Source: a virus (taxonomy: Duplodnaviria > Caudoviricetes). From it: a stretch of DNA of 49,557 bases. The notes beneath the pieces are model-generated. The model was not told the origin of the DNA. It saw nothing but the letters and a program-made list of their open reading frames with translations, and did no database searches. Shown piece after piece: positions 271-45,727 of the stretch. A program made the position numbers and the translations under genes. Within the stretch, counting starts at the first letter, position 1. The number at the start of each line of letters is the position of its first letter. Where the stretch lies: positions 1 to 49,557 of the IMG/VR virus record IMGVR_UViG_3300037755_001060; one strand, 5' to 3'.

Positions 271-615
271 CTAGCCACCACCGCGACGCCTGCCCGTATG
301 ATCTTCCTTGAACCGGTTATCGTGCAGCCGGCATGTCGAGCGGAGGTTGCTGTCGTCGTCGCTCCCGCCGTTCCGCGGCGACACGATATGGTCGACGATG
401 AACGCCCGCGCGCGGCATCCTTTCACCCAGCACCGGTACAGGTCGCGCAGCAGCACCCGCTCCCGCGTCTCCAGCCAGTCGCGTGTCTTGTAGCGCGGGT
501 CGACCGTCTTGGGCGCCGCCGGCGCGCCTGGCGGAGCGATGGTCGCCAGCGTCGGCTCCATCCTCGGCAGGCGCGCGCAGCGACGTCCGGTGGCGCTTTT
601 AGGCGCCGCGGTCAT
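271..615 (-). CDS. HNH endonuclease (gp74-like packaging nuclease)
   Basis: RERVLLRDLYRC..C...VDHI.S..NGG.D...NLRSTC..HDN motif, adjacent to TerS, GGAG RBS. Confidence 0.9.
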   Translation of the reverse strand: MTAAPKSATGRRCARLPRMEPTLATIAPPGAPAAPKTVDPRYKTRDWLETRERVLLRDLYRCWVKGCRARAFIVDHIVSPRNGGSDDDSNLRSTCRLHDNRFKEDHTGRRRGGG

Positions 616-5616: not shown

Positions 5617-6435
5617 TCACGCCTCACCCCACGGCGCGTTGATCGCCACCCGGAACAGCGCGTCCAGCGCCGCCGGATGCGGCTCGCGCGTCGGCGCCGC
5701 TTCCGCCATCGACCGGCAGACCGGCAGCGCGGCGGCGATGAACGCGTCGAGCTCGGCGATCCGGCCGGTCGCCATCTCGCCGGACTGGCGCTTGAGGGTC
5801 AGCAGCGTCCGGAGCGCGCCGACCTCGTCCGGGCCGAACAGGTTGCGATAGCGACCGACGACGCCGTCCAGGAGCGCGTCGATCCTGAGCCACGGCAGGC
5901 CATGGCCGTGGCTCGCCATCCACAGCACCGCGAGCAGCGGCCGCACCGCGTAGAAATACTTCTTGAGCCGCACCGGCGCGCCCGGCTTCCAGTATGCCTT
6001 GTGCTGCCGCTCGGCCAGGCTGACATAGTGGTGCATCAGCGCCCGCGGCGAATAGTCGGCCATGATGCCGCGCAGGGCCGCGCGGAACCAGTCGCCATCG
6101 CCGCGATAGAAGATCGGGCTCGCCAGCCATTCCAGCAGCGCCGGGTTGCTCTTGGCCGCCAGGCGCAGCGCCTTGCGCACGTCCCAGCCGGCGAGGTCCA
6201 GGTTCTCCGCCATGGGGCCGAACGGATGCTCGAGCGTGTCGCGCCACGGCACGAGGCTCAGATAGCAGTCGAGCCGGTGGCGGTAGATGAACCGCACGTC
6301 GTAATCGCTGTCCGGCGACTCGATGCCCCACGCCCGGCTCCCCGCCTCGCACGCGAACAGCACCCGCACGTCGAACTCCCGCTCGATCCGCCCGATGCGC
6401 GCGCGGATGACGTCACCCATCACGCTGATGGTCAT
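5617..6435 (-). CDS. DNA pol beta-superfamily nucleotidyltransferase (RlaP/YcgL-like)
   Basis: FACEAGSRAWGIESPDSDYDVRFIY, GWDVRKALRL..KSNP.LLEWL.SP, KKYFYAVRP. Confidence 0.9.
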   Translation of the reverse strand: MTISVMGDVIRARIGRIEREFDVRVLFACEAGSRAWGIESPDSDYDVRFIYRHRLDCYLSLVPWRDTLEHPFGPMAENLDLAGWDVRKALRLAAKSNPALLEWLASPIFYRGDGDWFRAALRGIMADYSPRALMHHYVSLAERQHKAYWKPGAPVRLKKYFYAVRPLLAVLWMASHGHGLPWLRIDALLDGVVGRYRNLFGPDEVGALRTLLTLKRQSGEMATGRIAELDAFIAAALPVCRSMAEAAPTREPHPAALDALFRVAINAPWGEA

Positions 6436-6743
6436 ACCCGCCTCCTGAAGCCGCCCTTGCCCACCCAATAGCCGACCGTCATCCCGATCACCGAGCGCGC
6501 GATCTCGGTCGGCGTATCGCCCTCCATGATCCCGAGCCCGTCGAGCAGCCAATCGAAGGCGACCCAGACGACCAGCACGCACAGCCCGAAGCCGAGCGCA
6601 TCCAGGATCCGCATGATCTGCGCGCGGATGCGACGGCGCCGTCCTGACCGGCGCCGGCAGCCCGGGCACGAAAATTGCCGCTTGTCCGGCGTATCGAACA
6701 GCTTGTCGCAAAGCGCGCAGCGATTCTGATAGGCGTGGATCAT
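6432..6743 (-). CDS. Zn-ribbon membrane protein
   Basis: CxxC...CxxC followed by two hydrophobic segments. Confidence 0.6.
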   Translation of the reverse strand: MIHAYQNRCALCDKLFDTPDKRQFSCPGCRRRSGRRRRIRAQIMRILDALGFGLCVLVVWVAFDWLLDGLGIMEGDTPTEIARSVIGMTVGYWVGKGGFRRRV

Positions 6744-6928
6744 CCCTCGACTCCATCGATCGCCCGCATCGCGTCGACCGGCGCACCATCCTGGAACAGG
6801 TTGCACGAGTCGGTCTCCGCGACCCGCTCGCCACCATGCGGCGAGCCGGCGTTCGCGCACACCAGCGGCAGCGGCGCCGGCCCCAGCGCGAACCGGCAGC
6901 GCTCGCAGATCCGCCGCGCGTCACCCAT
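6740..6928 (-). CDS. small Cys-rich hypothetical protein
   Basis: ICERCRF...C...SP.......DSC; translationally coupled to its neighbours. Confidence 0.65.
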   Translation of the reverse strand: MGDARRICERCRFALGPAPLPLVCANAGSPHGGERVAETDSCNLFQDGAPVDAMRAIDGVEG

Positions 6929-9770: not shown

Positions 9771-11183
9771 TCAAACCGACCCCCCGAACAAAGGTGTATC
9801 GGCACCGCTCACATGGTCCAGCCGGCGGCGGATGTCGGCCAGATACTCGGCCTCACGTTCGATCAGCAGCGCCCGCATGCCCTCGCGCAGGCACGCCATG
9901 CCGGTCGTGCCGGTGCCCGCGAACGGATCGAGCACCAGCCCGCCAGGCGGCGTCACCAGCCGCACCAGCCATGCCATCAAATCCACCGGCTTGACCGTCG
10001 GATGCTTCGACCCCAGACGGTCGCCCTCGTCCGCCTTGGCGCAATAGAAGAACCGCGCGGCGGAACCGGAGTCGGCGATCCCCGGAATCGATTTGCCGCC
10101 CGCACCGCCGTGGTAGCCGAACGAGCCATTGGGGTCGTTGACGCCGCCGATTTGCCCTGGTCCCGTCTCCGGAAACCCCGCCAGCACCTCCGGCGAGCCG
10201 TCACGCACGACGTTGGCCGGCCAGCGGCCGGTCCAAGCTCGGCCGGCGGCCTCGGCCGTCGTAAACCCGAAGTCGTCTTTCGTTCTGCCGTGCTGGCTAA
10301 TTTCTTCATCGCCGACCCGGCACCCGTCGATGTTCAGCGCCCCCGTGCCGTGCTTCAGCACCGTCTCCGCGACCGTCCCGTCGAGCGGCTTGCGCGCCAG
10401 CACGATCGGCTCCCACGCCGGCTTGAGTGCCGTGCCCCAGCCCGCCCATTGCTTCGCCGCCTCGCTCGACGGCGCGGTAATGGCGCGGTCGAAATACTCG
10501 GGCCCGTCGCGCGAGGCCGCGTTGATGCCGTCGCCCTGCCCGCGGCCATGGCCGTTGCGGATGTCGCGCACCCGCTCAGTCGCCACCGTCGCGCGCTCGA
10601 CGCCGGCCGCCCGGTCGATACCCTTGCTCACGTCGTGCGATTTCGGGAAGCCCGAGCCGTAGACCCATTCGAGCAGGCCGCCGAATTGCGAGTCCTCGAT
10701 GCAGCGCAGGAACGCCGCCGCCTGCTCGGCCGACAGCGTGTCGAGGAACGCGCGCACCGCGGTGTCGCCGGCCATCAGCTCGAGGATCGAGTCGCGGATC
10801 TCGAAGCCCGCGTCCTCGATGGCACAGGCCATGCGGTGATAGGTCCGCGTGCCGCCGAACGCGACCAGGTGCGCGCCTGGCTTCATGACGTCGAACGCGG
10901 CCCGCCAGGTCTCGACCCGGAACGCCACGTCGCCGCCATCCCAAACCTTGCCCATGAAACCCTTGGACGTGCGCGCGTAAGCCCCGCCCAAGCCCTGCGT
11001 AGCCCCCGGCGAAGCAGGGGGCACCTTGACCGCCGCGGCATCGGGCGCGCCGAACCGCTTGACGATCGAGGTCAGGTGATAGGGCGGATCGGTCACGACG
11101 GCATCGACCCGCACGCCCTCTTCCTTGAGCCGCGCCATGACCGCGACGCAATCCCCCGCCTCGATGCGCACGGCGTCAATCAT
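9771..11183 (-). CDS. N6-adenine/N4-cytosine DNA methyltransferase (beta class)
   Basis: VTDPPY at the N-terminus; HPTVKP..LM.WL..L..PPGG.VLDPF.G.GTT at the C-terminus. Confidence 0.93.
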   Translation of the reverse strand: MIDAVRIEAGDCVAVMARLKEEGVRVDAVVTDPPYHLTSIVKRFGAPDAAAVKVPPASPGATQGLGGAYARTSKGFMGKVWDGGDVAFRVETWRAAFDVMKPGAHLVAFGGTRTYHRMACAIEDAGFEIRDSILELMAGDTAVRAFLDTLSAEQAAAFLRCIEDSQFGGLLEWVYGSGFPKSHDVSKGIDRAAGVERATVATERVRDIRNGHGRGQGDGINAASRDGPEYFDRAITAPSSEAAKQWAGWGTALKPAWEPIVLARKPLDGTVAETVLKHGTGALNIDGCRVGDEEISQHGRTKDDFGFTTAEAAGRAWTGRWPANVVRDGSPEVLAGFPETGPGQIGGVNDPNGSFGYHGGAGGKSIPGIADSGSAARFFYCAKADEGDRLGSKHPTVKPVDLMAWLVRLVTPPGGLVLDPFAGTGTTGMACLREGMRALLIEREAEYLADIRRRLDHVSGADTPLFGGSV

Positions 11184-11202
11184 CACGGCCCCGCGAAGGC
11201 CC

Positions 11203-11291
11203 ACCACAGAGGCACAGAGACACAGAGGAGCACTCCCGCGCCGCTGCGCGGCGCAACGCACTTTTCCTCTGTGCCTCTGTGCCTCTGTGGT
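11203..11291. mobile_element. palindromic element family B (ACCACAGAGGCACAGAG...CTCTGTGCCTCTGTGGT), copy 1
   Basis: Long terminal inverted repeats between two MTase genes. Confidence 0.8.
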
Positions 11292-12359
11292 TCATCTTCC
11301 GTCGACCGTCACGGCCGCCAGCATGCCGCCGTCGGCGCGGATGCGCGCGGCGGCCATCGCGGCGAAATCCGGGTTGAGCTCGATCAGCACCGCGTCCCGC
11401 CCGAGCCGGTCGGCGACCAGCCCGGTCGTGCCCGCGCCGCCGAACGGGTCGAGCACGGCGCCGCCCTCGGGACAGCCGGCGCGGATGCATATCTCCGCGA
11501 CCAGGTCCGGCATCACCGCGAAATGCGCCTCCGAGAACTGCGCCGGCGGCACCCACCACACCGACCGCAGATTGGCGCCCATGGCCATCTGCTCGTCGCG
11601 CTCCATGGCGTCCCAGCGCTCGTTGAAACCCACATGGCGCCGGCCGTGGCCGCGCTGCTTGTCGCGCCGCGCTGGCGAATGGGCGATCTGCTCGGTGCTG
11701 TGGATGGTGCGCGACGGCGTATTCTCTGGACCGTATTTTATGCCGGCGGGCGACTCGTCCGGTTTCTTGAGCGCCGCCTGGAGGCGCGTCACCGTCGACG
11801 CCTTCGGCGCCGTCATCACCGCCTCGCGGTCGTAGCGGTAGACCTCGCTGCGGCTCAGCAGGAACACGTATTCGTGGCCGCGCGTCGGCCGGTCGGTCAC
11901 AGGCTCCGGCATGCCGTTCGGCTTCGCCCAGACATGATCGCCGCGCAGCCACCACCCGTCCGCGCGCAGCGCGAACGCCACCGCCCACGGGATGCCGACC
12001 AGATCCTTGGGCTTGAGGCCGGTAATCCGTTTCTCGCGGCCGACCCTTCGGCGACTTGCGGCGTCCAGATAAGCCTGCTTGCCGCCGGTCTCGCCGCCGA
12101 ACTTGCCATCGTTGGCGTAGCTGTCGCCGAGATTCAGCCACAGCGTACCGTCGGCCCTGAGCACCCGGCGCGCGGCGCGGAATACCTCGACCAGCGCCGC
12201 GACATAGGCGTCGGGCGTCGCCTCGATGCCGATCTGCCCGGCGACACCGTAGTCGCGCAGCCGCCAATAGGGCGGCGAGGTCACGATGCACTGCACCGAC
12301 TCCGCCGGCATCGCCGCCAGCCGCGCGCGCACGTCGCCGATGAGGATGCGGACGCTCAT
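11292..12359 (-). CDS. N4-cytosine/N6-adenine DNA methyltransferase (SPPY type)
   Basis: VTSPPYW, W.NLGDSY, W.KPN.MPE.V.DR, AHFA..P, VLDPFGGAGTT. Confidence 0.93.
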   Translation of the reverse strand: MSVRILIGDVRARLAAMPAESVQCIVTSPPYWRLRDYGVAGQIGIEATPDAYVAALVEVFRAARRVLRADGTLWLNLGDSYANDGKFGGETGGKQAYLDAASRRRVGREKRITGLKPKDLVGIPWAVAFALRADGWWLRGDHVWAKPNGMPEPVTDRPTRGHEYVFLLSRSEVYRYDREAVMTAPKASTVTRLQAALKKPDESPAGIKYGPENTPSRTIHSTEQIAHSPARRDKQRGHGRRHVGFNERWDAMERDEQMAMGANLRSVWWVPPAQFSEAHFAVMPDLVAEICIRAGCPEGGAVLDPFGGAGTTGLVADRLGRDAVLIELNPDFAAMAAARIRADGGMLAAVTVDGR

Positions 12360-12387
12360 GGCGCGCCGTAGCCCTGGCGAAGGCGGC

Positions 12388-12858
12388 TCAAAACGGAATC
12401 TCGTCGTCGAACGGATCGACCGGCGGCCTCGGTGCCGGTGCCGCGCCGCCGGCGGGCGGTGCTTCGCCTTCGCCCGATGCAGGGGCGCCCTGCGAAGCGT
12501 TCCGCGAAGCAGGGTCCATCATCGTGAGCTCGCCGCGGAACTTCGCCAGCACCACCTCGGTCGTGTATTTCTCGACGCCGGCCTGGTCGGTCCATTTGCG
12601 CGTCTGGAGCTGGCCCTCGACATAGACCTTCGCGCCCTTCGTCAGGTAGCGCGACGCAACGTTGGCCAGGTGCTCGTTCCAGATCACGATGCGGTGCCAC
12701 TCGGTGCGCTCGCGCCGTTCTCCGGTCGCCTTGTCGCGCCACGATTCCGACGTCGCCAGCGACAGGTTGACGACCGGGTCGCCGGCGCCCGTGTGCCGCA
12801 CCTCCGGATCGCGCCCCAGATGGCCGATCAGGATCACCTTGTTGACGCTACCGGCCAT
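12388..12858 (-). CDS. ssb: single-stranded DNA-binding protein
   Basis: [19 protein letters not shown]...LATSESW.DK...TEWH, C-terminal DDEIPF. Confidence 0.98.
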
Positions 12859-12885
12859 GCCGACTCCTCTGCCGCGAAAGAATGA

Positions 12886-12968
12886 ACAGGAGATGGGGAG
12901 ATGGGGAGCAGGGATACCGCGCGCCGTCGGCGCGCCGGCTCTTTTCTCCCCTTCTCCCCGCCTCCTGT
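12886..12968. mobile_element. palindromic element family A, copy 2
   Basis: ACAGGAGATGGGGAG...CTCCCCGCCTCCTGT. Confidence 0.75.
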
Positions 12969-12975
12969 GAAACCA

Positions 12976-13467
12976 TCACCGCGCGCCGCCCTTCGGGATC
13001 ACGCGCCCGCCGGTCGAGGCCATCGGATAGGCGTCGAGATAGGGGCTGTCGTGGCGCGCGCTGGTGTGCTTGCAGCGCTCGCAGATCCGGTTGCCCGCAT
13101 GCGTCGACCAGAACAGCCCGCCATGTTTCAGGCAGCGCCGCTTCTTGCGCGTCTCGGCCGGCGCGGTCGCGAGCCCGGCGCGGCGCGCCTCGGCGCGCTC
13201 GACGGCGGCCACCGCCTCCGCCGGCGAGCGGCCCTGCTGCTGGTCGGTCGTGACCCGGCCATAGACCTGGCTCGGCGCCAGCCCCGGCGCCGCCGCGATC
13301 GCCGGCACGCCCCAGCCCTCGCCCTTCATGGCATAGAGCGCGCGCACCCGCTCCGCCGTCCAGGTGATCCGCCCTCCTTCGCGCCTGGCGGCGCTTCGGA
13401 GGGCAGGCCCTCCTGCATCAAACTCCCGGAGGGCCTGCCCGCCGTAGCCTTGGCGACGGCGGGTCAT
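12976..13467 (-). CDS. GcrA-like N-terminal HTH fused to a Zn finger
   Basis: WTAERV..L....G.....IA...G.....V.GR, then RRCL.H...F.S...GNRIC..CK. The first ~30 aa are encoded by family C palindromes. Confidence 0.65.
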   Translation of the reverse strand: MTRRRQGYGGQALREFDAGGPALRSAARREGGRITWTAERVRALYAMKGEGWGVPAIAAAPGLAPSQVYGRVTTDQQQGRSPAEAVAAVERAEARRAGLATAPAETRKKRRCLKHGGLFWSTHAGNRICERCKHTSARHDSPYLDAYPMASTGGRVIPKGGAR

Positions 13468-14801
13468 GCCGCCCGCTCCCTGAGGATGCCGTCGACCAGA
13501 TCGATGCGCTCGCCGATGCGGCGCACGACCGGCACGGCCTTGGAGTTGCCGAGCGCCTTGTAGCGCGGCCCGTCCGGGCACCGCCCGGCCGGCCGCCCGC
13601 GCCACGGGATCAAGGTATAGTCGTCCGGGAAGCCCTGCAGCCGCTCGCACTCGCGCGGCGTCAGCCGCCGCACCGCCATGCCGTCGCGGATCGCCGGATA
13701 GCTCTGCCCCGGCTTGCGGCCGCCGGACTTGAGCGAGTCGGCGACATCCTTCTCCAGCACCTCGTCGCGGCTGTTCTGCGCGAACGCGACCGCGACAGTG
13801 CCGGCATCGGTGTCGAGGGGCGGCGACGTCTCGCCCATCTCGAACGAATCCTGACGCGCGTGCATCGCCACCGCGTGCCGGCTGTCCGCGCCGAGTGTGA
13901 ACATCGGGTCGCCGGGATCGCCGCTGCCGTCACCGGCCTTGCTGTCCGTCGACGACGCACCCGTGCGCTTGCCGCTTTCCAGGATCGGCACGGCAACCAA
14001 CGGCGTGCCGCGGCCGGTGCCATCTTCCGATGCATCGAAGCCATCGGCGCGCAGCGAATGAGCGATCAGCAGCCCGCCCTCGGCATCCTGCTGCGTTGCG
14101 CTGCCCGCCGCCTTTCCGTTCGCCGATATAGTGCCAACGACGGCGATCCGGTTGTCGGCGGTGTCGGCGTCGTTCCGGACGCCGCCGCTGCTTCGAGAGC
14201 CCGCCGCAATTGGCCGGGCAATTCCTTCCCCCGCTTCGCGGCGCGGCGCAGGATCCCCGCGCAGGCTTTCGGGCTCAAAAAGTACCGCGGCGGCAGGGCG
14301 CCAGTTTCCAAGATGGCCGACAAGGAAGACGCGCCGGCGCCGCTGAGGCACTCCGAAGTGCTGAGCGTCAAGGATTCGCCAGGCCCACCCATACCCGAGT
14401 TGCCCCACGAGCCCGAGGATGGCTCCGAACGTCCGTCCGCCGTCGATCGACAGGACGCCGGGCACGTTCTCCCAGACCAGCCAGCGGGGGCGAAGGCGTC
14501 GAGCCAGGGCAAGATACTCGAGCGTGAGGTTGCCGCGCGCATCGTCCAGTCCCGCGCGCTTTCCGGCGACACTGAACGACTGGCACGGGGTGCCGGCCAC
14601 GAGAAGGTCGATTGGCTCATAGTCGCCTTCCTGGATCGTGGTGAAATCGCCGTGCAGCGGCACGCCCGGCCAGCGATGCGCCAGCACCGCGCGCGGGAAC
14701 GCCTCGATCTCGGCGAAGAACGCCGGCCGCCAGCCGAGCGGATGCCACGCCACCGTCGCCGCCTCGATGCCCGAGCAGACGCTGCCGTAGACCAGCGGCA
14801 T
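13464..14801 (-). CDS. C5-cytosine DNA methyltransferase
   Basis: SVCSGIEA, GTPCQSFS, WENVPG, PQRRRRVF, RRLTPRECERLQGFPD, ALGNS. Confidence 0.95.
   Translation of the reverse strand: MPLVYGSVCSGIEAATVAWHPLGWRPAFFAEIEAFPRAVLAHRWPGVPLHGDFTTIQEGDYEPIDLLVAGTPCQSFSVAGKRAGLDDARGNLTLEYLALARRLRPRWLVWENVPGVLSIDGGRTFGAILGLVGQLGYGWAWRILDAQHFGVPQRRRRVFLVGHLGNWRPAAAVLFEPESLRGDPAPRREAGEGIARPIAAGSRSSGGVRNDADTADNRIAVVGTISANGKAAGSATQQDAEGGLLIAHSLRADGFDASEDGTGRGTPLVAVPILESGKRTGASSTDSKAGDGSGDPGDPMFTLGADSRHAVAMHARQDSFEMGETSPPLDTDAGTVAVAFAQNSRDEVLEKDVADSLKSGGRKPGQSYPAIRDGMAVRRLTPRECERLQGFPDDYTLIPWRGRPAGRCPDGPRYKALGNSKAVPVVRRIGERIDLVDGILRERAA
14066..14620 (-). CDS. alternative-frame ORF nested in the C5 MTase (EcoHK31I beta-polypeptide-like)
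   Basis: W.NSGM...GE......E......SLS.ILE......YFLS..AC.GILRRA..RGK.LP..L..AL resembles the nested beta subunit of heterodimeric MTases. Confidence 0.6.
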   Translation of the reverse strand: MSQSTFSWPAPRASRSVSPESARDWTMRAATSRSSILPWLDAFAPAGWSGRTCPASCRSTADGRSEPSSGSWGNSGMGGPGESLTLSTSECLSGAGASSLSAILETGALPPRYFLSPKACAGILRRAAKRGKELPGQLRRALEAAAASGTTPTPPTTGSPSLALYRRTERRRAAQRSRMPRAGC

Positions 14802-15085
14802 CACTCGCTCCCGCGATAGCAGCGCGCGCGGTGCGCGGCGCAATAGGGCGAGCGGCGGCCGCCCGGATGATCGGCCGTCGGCGCGCCGCAGAACGTGTAG
14901 GGATGCGCCTCGCCCTCCGGATACTGGCAGCGCGCCGCCGGCGCCGCCGCCAGCCCGACCGGATATTTGAGCACCAGCCCGAGCCCGAGCCGCCGCGCCA
15001 GCGCCGCGTGCTGCCCGGCGCGCCGCGTCGCGTTGCTGTCCTTGGGATAGGACGACCCTCCGGAGCCTTGGCGCAGGATGGTCAT
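14801..15085 (-). CDS. GcrA C-terminal domain protein
   Basis: CQYPEGE....TFCG.......SPYC..H...CY. Confidence 0.75.
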   Translation of the reverse strand: MTILRQGSGGSSYPKDSNATRRAGQHAALARRLGLGLVLKYPVGLAAAPAARCQYPEGEAHPYTFCGAPTADHPGGRRSPYCAAHRARCYRGSE

Positions 15086-15522
15086 GCGCCGCCTCCCGAC
15101 TTCGCCATCCGGTCGTACAGCACGACATTGACCGTCGCGGCGAGGTTCATGCAGTAGCGCGTCGGCACCATCACCCGGTCGCGGCAGCGCGCGACGACCC
15201 GCTCGTCCAAGGTCGCGTCCTCCGCGCCGAAGATGTACATGGCGCGCTCCGGATGCTGGTAGCGCGGCAGCGGCACCGCGCCCTCCAACAGATCGACCGC
15301 GACAGCCGTGCAGCCATAGGGCAAGCCGTCGAACACGTCCGCCAGGCCGTGCACGACCGGGACATGGCGCCACGCCTTATGGGTGTCCGGGTTCTCCTTG
15401 CGGAACCGTCCACCGGCGACGACCAGCAGCGTCGCGCCGTAGCAGCCGATCGCGCGCATCACCGCGCCGACATTGCCGCCGTATTTCGGATCGACCAGCG
15501 CGACGCAGGCATAGCCGCGCAT
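15082..15522 (-). CDS. SpoU/TrmH family RNA methyltransferase
   Basis: L.DPK..GNVGA.MRA, YIFGAED, CMNLAATVNVVLYDR (SPOUT motifs). Confidence 0.9.
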   Translation of the reverse strand: MRGYACVALVDPKYGGNVGAVMRAIGCYGATLLVVAGGRFRKENPDTHKAWRHVPVVHGLADVFDGLPYGCTAVAVDLLEGAVPLPRYQHPERAMYIFGAEDATLDERVVARCRDRVMVPTRYCMNLAATVNVVLYDRMAKSGGGA

Positions 15523-26434: not shown

Positions 26435-26871
26435 CCGCCACGCCCTGGCGCTACGCCAATTTCGACCACGCCGGCTGGCTGGCCGGCGCGCTCGGCCGCC
26501 CGGTCGACGAGCTGACGCCGCTCGCGCGCAAGGTCGCCATCATCATCGGCATCGCCGGCGGCGGCATCTACAACGCGCCCTGCGGCCCGACGCGGATGAA
26601 ATGGGACGGCCCCTGGATCGAGGCCAACTGGTACGGCGACCTGTCGACCTTCGATTACTCGGCCCTGACCGTCATGGTGCTGCTCTGCCACGAGGCGCGC
26701 GTGCGCCTGTCGATCAAGGCGAGCGGGCCGCGGCGGATCAAGCTGATCTTTTCCGAGCGCCGCGACTGCGCGGAAGACACGAGCGCGCACCATCCCTCGA
26801 TCGACGATGTGATCGTCGACATGCTGGAGAGCATCGGGCGGGACCACCCAATTCACGGAGACACGCGATGA
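26431..26871 (+). CDS. conserved phage hypothetical protein
   Basis: GGIYNAP...LSTFD...LT..V.LCH...VR.SI...R...HP motif. Confidence 0.75.
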   Translation: MTATPWRYANFDHAGWLAGALGRPVDELTPLARKVAIIIGIAGGGIYNAPCGPTRMKWDGPWIEANWYGDLSTFDYSALTVMVLLCHEARVRLSIKASGPRRIKLIFSERRDCAEDTSAHHPSIDDVIVDMLESIGRDHPIHGDTR

Positions 26872-27368
26872 CCGCCGCCCCGGCCCCCGCCCTCACCGAG
26901 CCCCAGCCGCGCAGCTTCGTCGAGCGCGCGGCCTGGGCCTACGCCGCGCTGCAGCTCGAGCATGACGGCCGCTGCCCGACGCCGATGTTCTCGCTGTGGA
27001 CGCGCGGCTTCGATCTGGGCGCGCTCGGCACGCACTGGCGCGCCGTCGTCGCCGAGGGCGAGCGCCTCTACCGCCGCCACCGCGCGCTCGGCATCGCCGC
27101 GCCACCGATCCCGGCGGACCTGTCCACCATAGCCTTGGCGACGGTGGACCGCGAGCGCCTCGCCCGCCTGACCGAGCGCCAGGCCGAGATCCTCGCCCGC
27201 CTCGCGCGCGGCGACCACGAGGAGGCGGTCAAGACCGCGCTCGGCATCAACCGCAACACCCTGCGCACGCACCTCCGCGACATGCTCGTCAACCTGCGCA
27301 GCGCCGACCTCCCCGCCGCCCTCGCGATCTACCGCCGCGCGGCGGGCGGCACGGGGAAAATATCATGA
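26868..27368 (+). CDS. LuxR-type C-terminal HTH protein
   Basis: LTERQAEIL..LA.G........LGI...T...HL......L. Confidence 0.7.
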   Translation: MTAAPAPALTEPQPRSFVERAAWAYAALQLEHDGRCPTPMFSLWTRGFDLGALGTHWRAVVAEGERLYRRHRALGIAAPPIPADLSTIALATVDRERLARLTERQAEILARLARGDHEEAVKTALGINRNTLRTHLRDMLVNLRSADLPAALAIYRRAAGGTGKIS

Positions 27369-27426
27369 GCCTAGCTTGGCGCGGCGTGGCGGGGCGCGGC
27401 TCGGCAAGGCAAGGGGTCGTACGACC
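27368..27426 (+). ncRNA. GGY-NN pentamer unit 0 with terminal hairpin (putative guide RNA)
   Basis: AGCCT AGCTT GGCGC GGCGT GGCGG GGCGC GGCTC GGCAA GGCAA, then GG-GGTCGTACGACC. Confidence 0.75.
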
Positions 27427-27466
27427 GCGTTGAAATCTGACCAACTTCAACAGAAGGAGAAACACT

Positions 27467-28132
27467 ATGCGTACCTACAGCATCACGATCACGGGCCAGA
27501 CACCGATCCTGTTCCACAACGACGACATCGACTGGGCGGACCGCATGGACGCCTGGAAGACCGACAAGGACAACAAGACCAAGTCCAAGGCCGGCGACGA
27601 CCGCACGCCCGCCTTCCGCTGGATCGGCTCGCTCTATCACGACCAGAAGCAGCTCGTCATCCCGACCGACAACATCATGCGCGGCGTGATGGAGGGCGGC
27701 GCGATGGTGCTGATCCCGGGCGCCAAGAACAACAAGACGTTCAAGGCGCCGTCGCAGAGCGGCATCATGCCGCGCGACATCGGCTGGCCGCTGCTCGTCG
27801 GCGGCCGGACGGTGCCGTTCAAGCCGATCGCCGAGCTGATGGCCGAGAAGGATTTCGAGGTGCACAAGCAGCGTGTCCTGGATCTGGGCGGCCGCCTCTT
27901 CGTCAAGCGCGTGGTCATCGGCACGAGCAAGCACATCCGCGTCCGCCCGTGCTTCGACCAATGGAGCACCGAGGGCCAGCTCATCGTCACCGACGACCGG
28001 ATCACGACGGCGGCGCTCGCCGACATCTTCGAGCAGATGGGCCGCTTCAAGGGTCTGTGCGATTGGCGCCCCAGCTCGAAGACGCCGGGCAGCTACGGCA
28101 TGTTCACCGCGGAGGTGCGGCAGGTCGCGTGA
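27467..28132 (+). CDS. stand-alone RAMP/Cas7-like RNA-binding protein (Vipr-like)
   Basis: beta1 YSITITGQTPILFHN, LVIPTDNI, RVRP.F..W, and a C-terminal Gly-rich loop GRFKGLCDWRP....GSYGMF; strong AGGAG RBS; flanked by pentamer arrays. Confidence 0.8.
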   Translation: MRTYSITITGQTPILFHNDDIDWADRMDAWKTDKDNKTKSKAGDDRTPAFRWIGSLYHDQKQLVIPTDNIMRGVMEGGAMVLIPGAKNNKTFKAPSQSGIMPRDIGWPLLVGGRTVPFKPIAELMAEKDFEVHKQRVLDLGGRLFVKRVVIGTSKHIRVRPCFDQWSTEGQLIVTDDRITTAALADIFEQMGRFKGLCDWRPSSKTPGSYGMFTAEVRQVA

Positions 28133-28142
28133 GATCGCGCGG

Positions 28143-28618
28143 GGCTGGGCCAGGCCGGCCGGGCCCGGCTAGGCCCGGCCGGGCTCGGCGTGGCGAGGCG
28201 TGGCCCGGCCGGGCAAGGCAAGGGGTCTTCGGACCGACGACGATGGAATTCGCGCGGCCCGGCGTGGCATGGCGGGGCTGGGCGGGGCAAGGCAGGGCTT
28301 GGCTGCGCGCGGAGAGGCAAGGGGTCTTCGGACCGACGACGGAATTCACGGGGCGAGGCCGGGCGCGGCAAGGCAAGGCGGGGCCGGGCGCGGCAAGGCA
28401 CGGCAAGGCATGGGGTCTCCGGACCGACGACGATGGAATTCACGCGGCAGGGTCGGGCTTAGCTCGGCCGGGCGCGGCCGGGCAGGGCAAGGCTGGGCAA
28501 GGCTGGGCAAGGCAAGGGGTCTTCGGACCGACGACGATGGAATTCACGCGGCGGGGCGTGGCTTGGTCTGGCTCGGCTGGGCGCGGCGTGGTGAGGCCAG
28601 GCAAGGGGTCTTTTGACC
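28143..28618 (+). ncRNA. array of five GGY-NN pentamer units (units 1-5; putative guide RNAs)
   Basis: 11-16 pentamers per unit; GG-GGTC-N4-GACC hairpins end at 28235, 28334, 28425, 28529 and 28618; linker GACGAC(GAT)GGAATTC(A/G)CG. Confidence 0.85.
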
Positions 28619-28635
28619 GGAAAGGAGAAAGCGAC

Positions 28636-29133
28636 ATGCGTATGATGAACAAGCCCGAGGGTGGCACGATCTTCCTGCGCGGCGTCCCGGTGGCGCCCGA
28701 CGTCGACCGCCTCATGACGCTCGACATCGCGCCGGGCGCCGAATTCGATTACGCGCTGATCGGCTCGATGCTGGGCCTCAAGCCCGACTCATCCGGCCAC
28801 TGGCCGGCGCGGTTCTCGACCGTGCTCCATGCCTGGCGCAAGCGCCTGCTGCGCGAGCGCAACCTGCGCGTCAAATACGAGGGCCGGAAGGCGAAGATCA
28901 TGACCGCGTCCGAGATGCACTCGGCGCATGTCGGCGACGTCAGCCGGATCTTCCGCGCCACCGTCCGCAGCTACACCTACGCCGAGGCGATCGACGTGGC
29001 GCAGCTCACCGCCGACGAGCATGCGCGCCACATGCTGGCCAAGCGCCTGCAGGGCAACGTCCTCGCCGAGATGCAGGGCGTCCGCCGCGCCATCGCCGCC
29101 GCCGCCCCGCCGCGCGCGATCAGGAAGAAGTGA
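28636..29133 (+). CDS. accessory protein of the RAMP/array locus (165 aa)
   Basis: AAGGAG RBS; MRMMNKPEGG...; winged-helix-like N-half and helical C-half (tentative); sits between two arrays. Confidence 0.75.
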   Translation: MRMMNKPEGGTIFLRGVPVAPDVDRLMTLDIAPGAEFDYALIGSMLGLKPDSSGHWPARFSTVLHAWRKRLLRERNLRVKYEGRKAKIMTASEMHSAHVGDVSRIFRATVRSYTYAEAIDVAQLTADEHARHMLAKRLQGNVLAEMQGVRRAIAAAAPPRAIRKK

Positions 29134-29548
29134 GCCATGACGAGGCCTGCCCCGGCTTGGCGTGGCGAGGCTTGGTGGGGCCAGGCGGGGCTTGGCCGGG
29201 CGAGGCATGGCATGGCAAGGGGTCGTACGACCGACACGACAGAATTCACGCGGCGTGGCTAGGCCGGGCGTGGCATGGCTCGGCAAGGCTCGGCAAGGCA
29301 AGGGGTCTTCGGACCGACGACGATGGAATTCACATGGCTCGGCTCGGCCCGGCGCGTCTCGGCCAGGCGCGGCCCGGCAGGGCCTGGCGGGGCCCGGCGG
29401 GGCAAGGCAAGGGGTCGTATGACCGATGACGACAGAATTAACCCGGCAGTGCGCGACGTGGTGAGGCACGCCGAGACGAGGCGGCGCCGGGCTAGGCTGG
29501 GCGCGGCGAGGTGCGGCAAGGCAAGGCAAGGCAAGGGGTCTTCGGACC
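29134..29548 (+). ncRNA. array of four GGY-NN pentamer units (units 6-9; putative guide RNAs)
   Basis: 10-18 pentamers per unit; hairpins end at 29232, 29315, 29424 and 29548; GAATT-containing linkers. Confidence 0.85.
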
Positions 29549-29778
29549 GGATAGCTAAAGGACTACGACCATGGATAATATTGAGAGGGAAAAATCGAAG
29601 TATTTCCTCTACTTGCTGGAAAAACATAGGGCGGCCTATGCGGCGCAAGCCAGCGTTGCCGCACCCATCCGGCGTCGCTACTTGGCCGAGATAGATACGC
29701 AAATCCATGAGGTCAAGCGTCGAATACGGCTCCTTACCCACTAGCCGCGCCCAACACTCACCCGAAAGGACCACGACC

Positions 29779-30252
29779 ATGAACCGACGTCGATTTCTGG
29801 GCTTACTCGCGGTGGCGCCGATCGCCGCGCTGCTGCCGGGCCAGGCACCGGCGGCGGCCGCGGGCGGGCCGCTTGCGGTCAAGGTCGGGGCGATCGACAT
29901 GGTCACGCCGCAGATGGATCGATTATACGACACGGCGGCATGGCGCGAGGTGCGGCGCAAGATGGCGGCCGACAGCCTGCGCGCCGTGGCGGCGATCTCC
30001 GCGCGCGCGGCCCAGCTCGGCGTCACCGCGGAAGAGTGGCAGGCGCTCGACTACGGCGCGGTCCGCGACGGCATCCCGGCCGAGCGGCTGCGCGACACGC
30101 TCGACGGCGCCGGCATGGCGCGCCTCGTCGACGACGCGCGCGCGGCCGGCGTCGTCCTCGACGACGAGACGATCGCGCTCGCGGCCCAGGGGCTGCGCGA
30201 GATCGAGGCCGACGCCGAGGATCCGCGTGATCCAGCGCCGGAGCCCGCTTGA
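29779..30252 (+). CDS. protein with a Tat-like N-terminus and a tape-measure-like fragment
   Basis: MNRRRFLGLLAVAP..; A.QLGV..E..QAL.Y.A...GI..E.L and A...GVVLD.ET motifs; AAGGA RBS. Confidence 0.6.
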   Translation: MNRRRFLGLLAVAPIAALLPGQAPAAAAGGPLAVKVGAIDMVTPQMDRLYDTAAWREVRRKMAADSLRAVAAISARAAQLGVTAEEWQALDYGAVRDGIPAERLRDTLDGAGMARLVDDARAAGVVLDDETIALAAQGLREIEADAEDPRDPAPEPA

Positions 30253-35520: not shown

Positions 35521-35673
35521 TTCACCACAGAGGCACAGAGAAGAAGAGGGATTCACCACAAAGACACAAAGGCTCGAAGGAAAGCGCCGCGCGCGGCGCA
35601 ACCAATCTTCTTTGTGTCTTTGTGCCTTTGTGGTGAAAGATTCTTCCTCTGTGTCTCTGTGCCTCCGTGGTTA
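35521..35673. mobile_element. family B palindrome with a nested variant copy
   Basis: Outer ACCACAGAGGCACAGAG arms enclose inner TTCACCACAAAGACACAAAG...CTTTGTGGTGAA arms. Confidence 0.8.
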
Positions 35674-37952: not shown

Positions 37953-38135
37953 ACCACAGAGGCACAGAGAAAAAGAGGGGTTCACCACAAAGACACAAAG
38001 GCTCAAAGAAAAAGCGCTGCATCCCGCTGGCGCGCGAAAACCATTCTTCGTGTCTTCGTGTCTTTGTGGTGAAAATCCTTTCTCTGTGCCTCCTTGCCCG
38101 CCATAGCCCATAAGGCGACGGCGGGTGTGGTTAAC
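37953..38135. mobile_element. nested family B palindrome with a family C insertion in its right arm
   Basis: Near copy of 35521-35673, but GCCTCC|GTGGTTAAC is interrupted by 33 bp (38094-38126). Confidence 0.85.
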
Positions 38136-45635: not shown

Positions 45636-45727
45636 ACCACAGAGGCACAGAGACACAGAGGGAAAAGGACTGCGCCGCGCAGCGGCGCCGGAGGCCTTCC
45701 TGCTCTGTGTCTCTGTGCCTCTGTGGT
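45636..45727. mobile_element. palindromic element family B, copy 4
   Basis: ACCACAGAGGCACAGAGACACAGAG...CTCTGTGTCTCTGTGCCTCTGTGGT. Confidence 0.85.

Follow-up and report, generated by a model that had tools for sequence, protein, structure and literature searches.

A divergent VIPR locus in a virus record with a guide predicted to match HNH packaging-nuclease genes

Introduction

VIPR (Viral Interference Programmable Repeat) is an RNA-guided silencer, related to CRISPR, that was described in 2026. Its guides read the target with a one-nucleotide skip aligned with the wobble position, repress either strand and are directed at competing elements (bioRxiv 10.64898/2026.04.26.720920). Natural VIPR targets lie on both strands, either of which is silenced, and those reported comprise satellites, lysis-lysogeny regulators and other VIPR systems (10.64898/2026.04.26.720920). 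In the accessible portions of the preprints, SUSP1 guides mostly match a satellite (10.64898/2026.04.26.720920, 10.64898/2026.10.15.759431), and escape from the SUSP1 guide vrRNA4, which faces a satellite recombinase, needs amino-acid changes (10.64898/2026.10.15.759431). The structural work (10.64898/2026.04.26.720927) describes, in its accessible text, filament assembly that begins from the tail end, roles of H17, a thumb Arg and a G-loop D-W-R in RNA binding, and pairing with ssRNA in cryo-EM, where RNA substrates gave mostly incomplete filaments.

HNH genes are a recurrent feature of phage packaging modules. They adjoin terminases (PMC3592412, whose available text does not name the RGY motif, with 0 occurrences), and a terminase-associated HNH is reported, in the part of the source at hand, as indispensable to the production of Skunavirus virions (PMC12967558). 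Similarly, the accessible text of 10.1101/2022.09.08.507074 describes cf-PICIs that encode hnh-terS-terL and helper phages that require HNH for packaging.

Results

Membership of the locus in VIPR

The window, as we call the whole stretch of DNA analysed, is an entire virus record of 49,557 bases. It encodes an integrase, a primase and an endolysin alongside tail genes of lambda-like type. The 40 ORFs scanned included neither a terminase large subunit nor a capsid gene, and the HNH gene of the window sits close to the contig end. Ten GGY-NN guide units, each ending in the tail GGCA(A/T)GGGGTC, are distributed around two ORFs: one unit before the vipr gene, five behind it, and four behind a 165-aa accessory ORF that has zero Pfam or PHROGs matches (Table 1). 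Rfam gave 0 matches across the window, and no sigma-70-like promoter was found in 26800-30000. Of the sequencing runs listed as carrying the locus, one is a DNA run and none is an RNA run.

Among PDB structures, the sole significant match of the 221-aa protein is SUSP1 Vipr (36pp_D; phmmer E 2.4e-10 with the single sequence, E 1.8e-15 with a profile). The alignment pairs H17, R138 and D177-W178-R179 of SUSP1 with H17, R160 (thumb Arg) and D199-W200-R201 (G-loop) of the Vipr encoded here, and all of these are invariant across 44 homologues. The structure model has a pLDDT of 86, and 1035 of 1186 candidate relatives fall at E <= 1e-20. With a single sequence as query no related loci were recovered; an alignment search gave 111, of which 80 were kept. 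GGY-NN arrays lie beside 80/80 of these viral loci, with 339/339 array calls on the vipr strand. A low-complexity or coding repeat was considered as the origin of the arrays and rejected, given the fixed tails, the variable NN and an identical layout beside 80 homologues.

The hallmarks of VIPR are found together in the window. There are ten adjacent units on the vipr strand, within 9-16-step GGY/NN arrays, beside a protein that by sequence belongs to the Vipr family of RAMP proteins and has the thumb and G-loop residues. The 10 tails share an invariant GGGGTC...GACCG that can form a 4 bp hairpin, whose folding z of 0.11 is by itself not significant; 79 of 98 distinct related tails give a 4-5 bp stem, in 25 stem sequences and without a null comparison. 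The skip of one nucleotide falls on the wobble position, with 12 matches at gap 1, all in frame, and 0 at gap 2 (see below), and no self target at >=80% was found in the window, which is without head genes and so covers only part of the genome. On this sequence evidence, we assign the locus to VIPR.

With the reference systems (SUSP1 and P. fulva type II) the locus shares a small RAMP-like Vipr, guides of ~9-16 GGY/NN steps that end in a conserved 3' tail, a single upstream guide, downstream arrays, an accessory ORF, a phage location, the wobble skip and the lack of any self target, and its layout resembles VIPR type II. Unlike them, it has ~29% identity to the Felixounavirus Vipr, ten guides, an array placed between vipr and the accessory ORF, and an accessory ORF without an assigned family. 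The RAMP filament on guide RNA and the periodic base flipping (accessible text of 10.64898/2026.04.26.720927) are reminiscent of Class 1 CRISPR with its Cas7 backbone; unlike in Class 1 CRISPR, the guide is noncontiguous, every third target base is skipped, and there are no Cas genes among the proteins scanned.

Several related loci differ in array form. In L096, L100, L111-L116 and L120-L126, consecutive guides are joined via very short linkers (e.g. GGAAC) with no hairpin tail; these may correspond to the staggered arrays described in the preprint. At L079:4162, L103:2409, L056:3386 and L082:1437, guides are either very long (37-40 steps) or duplicated internally, which points to arrays that have undergone slippage or recombination.

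Table 1. Coordinates of the VIPR locus, the HNH gene of the same record and compact elements with HNH genes.
Feature	Position	Strand	Remarks
Upstream vrRNA unit	27368..27432	+	~9 steps and a tail
vipr gene, 221-aa RAMP-like protein	27467..28132	+	phmmer and profile match to SUSP1 Vipr; phrog_4652
Unit 1, informative part, 14 GGC-NN steps	28143..28211	+	Predicted target: HNH coding strand at RGTST[DE]RGYGRRWQ
One-base-short step GGCC	28153..28156	+	Register kept in target matches only if counted as a full step
End steps GGCAA GGCAA, then the conserved 3' tail with GGTC-N4-GACC hairpin	28212..28250	+	10-tail alignment, fold, stem variation in related loci
Array 1, four further vrRNA units	28251..28620	+	Tails at 28316, 28407, 28511, 28600
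165-aa accessory ORF, vap-gene position	28636..29133	+	Closest Atlas clusters: viral proteins without names
Array 2, four vrRNA units	29144..29555	+	Tails at 29214, 29297, 29406, 29530
Phage's own HNH gene	271..615	-	PF01844; no RGY motif; not a predicted target
Compact integrase-HNH-head elements, satellite-like, of no assigned family	L131:5504-16228, L132:6080-16194, L133:130-9581		

Decoding of unit 1

Unit 1 comprises 16 GGC-NN steps at 28143-28221, the third of which is 4 nt long, followed by the tail GGGGTCTTCGGACC. Its NN positions read TG CA C(G) CG CC TA CC CG TC GT GA GT CC CG AA AA, and their reverse complement, taken as codon positions 1-2, gives [FL][FL]-R-G-T-S-T-[DE]-R-G-Y-G-R-R-[WC]-[HQ]. 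The earlier note had listed these dinucleotides and decoded them, with a one-base skip, to R-G-T-S-T-[DE]-R-G-Y-G-R-(R)-[WC]-[QH]; both were reproduced from the sequence. The two AA steps by the tail appear to be scaffold, since they are unmatched at targets (full TT stands at neither position among the commonest letters of 39 HNH sites) and AA is the last step in most related guides (109/205).

Unit 1 matches HNH genes in the wobble register

We searched a viral collection of 2.9 million contigs, and further GTDB and metagenomes, with gapped patterns taken from the guide: 18 bases for the nine-dinucleotide core next to the tail, 22 for an eleven-dinucleotide core and 28 for the full guide. 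All ten units were decoded, and target scans covered unit 1 and the unit ending at 28604. The latter, which reverse-decodes like an HNH C-terminal motif, was dropped when an 18-base pattern derived from it had 0 matches in the viral collection.

The 18-base core of unit 1 has 12 viral loci, every one in frame within a gene that matches PHROGs HNH families. In GTDB it has 19 (12 HNH, 4 without a family and 3 in frames too short to scan), and a 20-base pattern has 15 in metagenomes, all 15 of them HNH. When the three collections are pooled, 39/46 matches are HNH genes, at 31 distinct sites. Two control patterns, run on the viral collection only, gave 0 matches each, one with the same dinucleotides and a two-base gap and the other with the dinucleotides in shuffled order. 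With 12 in-frame HNH loci set against 0 and 0, the HNH match is more than chance. The pattern search with shuffled and other-gap controls proposed in the earlier note supports two claims of that note, namely that unit 1 targets an HNH motif and that the skipped base is the wobble base, and the distal enrichment described below speaks for the former as well.

Positions outside the search pattern behave likewise. The Trp codon (TG) stands at the predicted offset in 27/31 distinct sites; among the 21 sites from the 18-base scans it is there in 18, and at either neighbouring offset in 0. The four distal dinucleotides (8 unsearched bases) have a mean match of 3.74, against 1.98 for dinucleotides drawn from the other guides of the phage (p about 0.008). 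The skipped positions vary without constraint at the HNH sites. Used as a separate pattern, the distal half finds 4 loci, two of which are HNH genes with an exact ERGYGRRWQ and terminase genes downstream; the other two are not HNH, contain stop codons and are chance matches.

These data bear on whether the HNH reading is a coincidence, the product of multiple ways of decoding ten guides. There was indeed a choice among 10 units, two orientations and several gaps, and every real protein motif retrieves its own family. Nonetheless, the absence of control matches, the retrieval of HNH genes by each half of the guide separately, the enrichment at unsearched positions and the failure of the similar hunch for the unit ending at 28604 largely refute coincidence, which we regard as scarcely credible.

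Twenty-two of the 31 distinct sites score >=23/28, above the 80% cut-off of the VIPR preprints, and the best (L005, L022, L034 and L035) reach 26/28. No perfect target was found in the collections searched, and the exact 22-base core has 0 matches in the viral and GTDB collections. Because the best plasmid matches of the window's integrase are alphaproteobacterial (26-32% identity, a weak host hint), the class of Acidocella was scanned with the full 28-base pattern at <=3 mismatches, and 0/401 genomes contained it. The matches span many phyla and habitats and so point to a motif that is conserved, not to the rival itself. Recurrence of the HNH guide was sought among 186 distinct related guides (>=10 steps), 0 of which exceeded 0.8 against the 31 HNH genes, a set biased to one motif variant and compared with guides from a parser that cuts degenerate arrays.

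The short step holds register

The position of the 4-nt step allows a test of register. TG,CA, which lie beyond it as seen from the tail, score 2.87 of 4 at slots 14-15, as against 0.55 and 1.48 when shifted, and the 4-nt step must therefore count as one step. A strain-variant contig that covers 27383-28240 has the short step unchanged, with no base inserted, though this contig may stem from the source sample.

The 4-nt step may weaken the filament, and unit 1 might accordingly be a decayed relic, a former HNH guide disabled by a one-base deletion and drift. The lack of a perfect target and the degenerate scaffolds of several other units fit this idea. However, the defect lies at the distal end, whereas filament assembly begins at the tail end (accessible text of 10.64898/2026.04.26.720927); the 10 informative steps by the tail are perfect and exactly matched at many sites; and the variant contig, with the caveat above, retains the identical short step. 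We consider decay unlikely.

Genomic context of the matched genes

The predicted targets fall in the terminase-associated HNH families PHROGs 144, 589, 2323 and 1808 (HK97 gp74 type), many with terS/terL downstream. Of 20 HNH loci examined, 19 have downstream ORFs, and 39/55 of these ORFs were scanned. A terminase subunit was found downstream in 9/19 loci (two being the same element) and a major head gene in 2, the rest having other assignments or none. By family and position, the matched HNH proteins probably act in packaging.

Three GTDB loci (L015, L029 and L031) stand apart. They lie in compact, integrase-anchored elements of ~10 kb in which HNH is accompanied by a head gene, as well as by a primase in two of them and by a tape measure gene in two, which suggests that they are satellites; no terminase was detected in them. 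The earlier note had placed the target in a cos-proximal gene of a competing phage: this fits the nine loci with a terminase downstream, and these three lie in satellite-like elements.

A guide aimed at a satellite (PICI-like or a capsid-forming island) that parasitises this phage, in place of a full rival phage, would be a special case of the HNH reading. The order of HNH and then head gene in the three compact elements speaks for it, as do the origin of L031 from Acidocella beside the weak alphaproteobacterial best matches of the window's integrase, the SUSP1 guides that mostly match a satellite (in the available text of 10.64898/2026.04.26.720920 and 10.64898/2026.10.15.759431) and the hnh-terS-terL module of cf-PICIs (accessible text of 10.1101/2022.09.08.507074). 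On the other hand, the sites in the three elements score 22-24/28, below the best phage-type sites, terminase-adjacent matches are more numerous, and the missing terminases leave cf-PICI status without support. A satellite target is possible, although we hold it to be the less probable form of the reading.

No self target in the window

The phage's own HNH gene, as the earlier note stated, has no RGY motif; its best unit 1 score is 18/28, and it is not a predicted target. The best unit 1 site anywhere in the window scores 19/28, and the other guide units reach at best <=11/14. The phage's own HNH protein aligns with a target HNH in the catalytic half only.

Discussion

We consider it likely that unit 1 is a VIPR guide RNA that matches HNH packaging-nuclease genes at their RGTSTERGYGxxW stretch and silences such a gene in a rival phage or satellite. 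The reading is based on demonstrated features of the locus, namely sequence anatomy, Vipr homology, HNH enrichment, the wobble register and the absent self target, while binding and repression are inferred from homologous systems. By analogy with these, each step of the RNA would be covered by one Vipr subunit that leaves the NN exposed; the exposed NN would pair with the HNH coding strand from the tail end onward, with the wobble bases flipped out; and the filament, once bound, would stop transcription across the HNH gene and probably also across the terminase genes behind it. As terS-terL often follow such HNH genes, a block at HNH would cut the packaging of the rival.

Because unit 1 is complementary to the coding strand of HNH, the complex might act on HNH mRNA. 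Besides the orientation of the guide, the pairing of VIPR with ssRNA in cryo-EM would fit such an action. Yet the same structural work reports, in its accessible text, mostly incomplete filaments on RNA substrates (10.64898/2026.04.26.720927), and natural targets lie on both strands, with silencing of either (10.64898/2026.04.26.720920). We regard action on mRNA as very improbable.

Synonymous changes in HNH would not release such a filament, and escape would require amino-acid changes. That the wobble skip makes a guide insensitive to synonymous escape, as the earlier note argued, is already part of the published VIPR code (10.64898/2026.04.26.720920, 10.64898/2026.10.15.759431). The closest parallel is SUSP1 vrRNA4 against the F5 satellite recombinase (accessible text of 10.64898/2026.10.15.759431), which likewise reads codon positions 1-2, there within a conserved part of a gene essential to a competitor, and in that case blocks synonymous escape. 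Unlike vrRNA4, unit 1 has as its predicted target a packaging-nuclease motif that is common to the HNH genes of many unrelated phages. A further suggestion, tentative and on balance doubtful, is that of a family-level guide: by reading the amino-acid-determining bases of a motif common to the packaging nucleases of many unrelated phages and satellites, a single 100-nt RNA would shut the HNH-terS-terL module of a broad range of rivals, with the phage's own HNH in a subfamily that lacks the motif and the filament bridging the short repeat in register.

The core VIPR mechanism was known beforehand, which limits the surprise. What is new here is a divergent ten-guide locus, a predicted HNH packaging-gene target, set against the satellites, lysis-lysogeny regulators and other VIPRs reported so far, and a one-base-short repeat that holds register. 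The locus gives independent support for the one-nucleotide-skip code in a clade distant from both of those studied. Furthermore, terminase-associated HNH genes form a target class absent from the VIPR preprint main texts, as far as these are accessible: HNH occurs there a single time, as a Vap domain (10.64898/2026.04.26.720920), although the supplements, including Data S3, may list HNH targets, and it is absent from the available text of 10.64898/2026.10.21.760802, which mentions VIPR. More generally, the locus makes it possible to ask if a motif shared by a protein family can be covered in many phages with one guide, and its 4-nt step is a natural test of scaffold tolerance.

Other features of the record

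The ORF directly 5' of the VIPR locus (26868-27368) shows a weak LuxR/GerE-type HTH (E 1.7e-4, under the cut-off) and is a possible regulator. A close variant contig over 27301-27405 differs by a few substitutions and has 22 additional letters inside the upstream guide unit, which suggests that guide length differs among strains. Elsewhere, three DNA methyltransferase genes (two N6/N4, one C5) lie on the minus strand at 9771-15128, near the primase, and an RlaP-family nucleotidyltransferase is found at 5617-6924; DUF5131 and DUF4326 genes are likewise present in the window. Finally, octamers of the CACAGAGG type occur in triplets with reverse-complement copies in four intergenic clusters (11205-11290, 35526-35670, 37955-38090 and 45638-45726), three of which form long hairpins in the stretches folded; we guess these to be REP-like mobile repeats.
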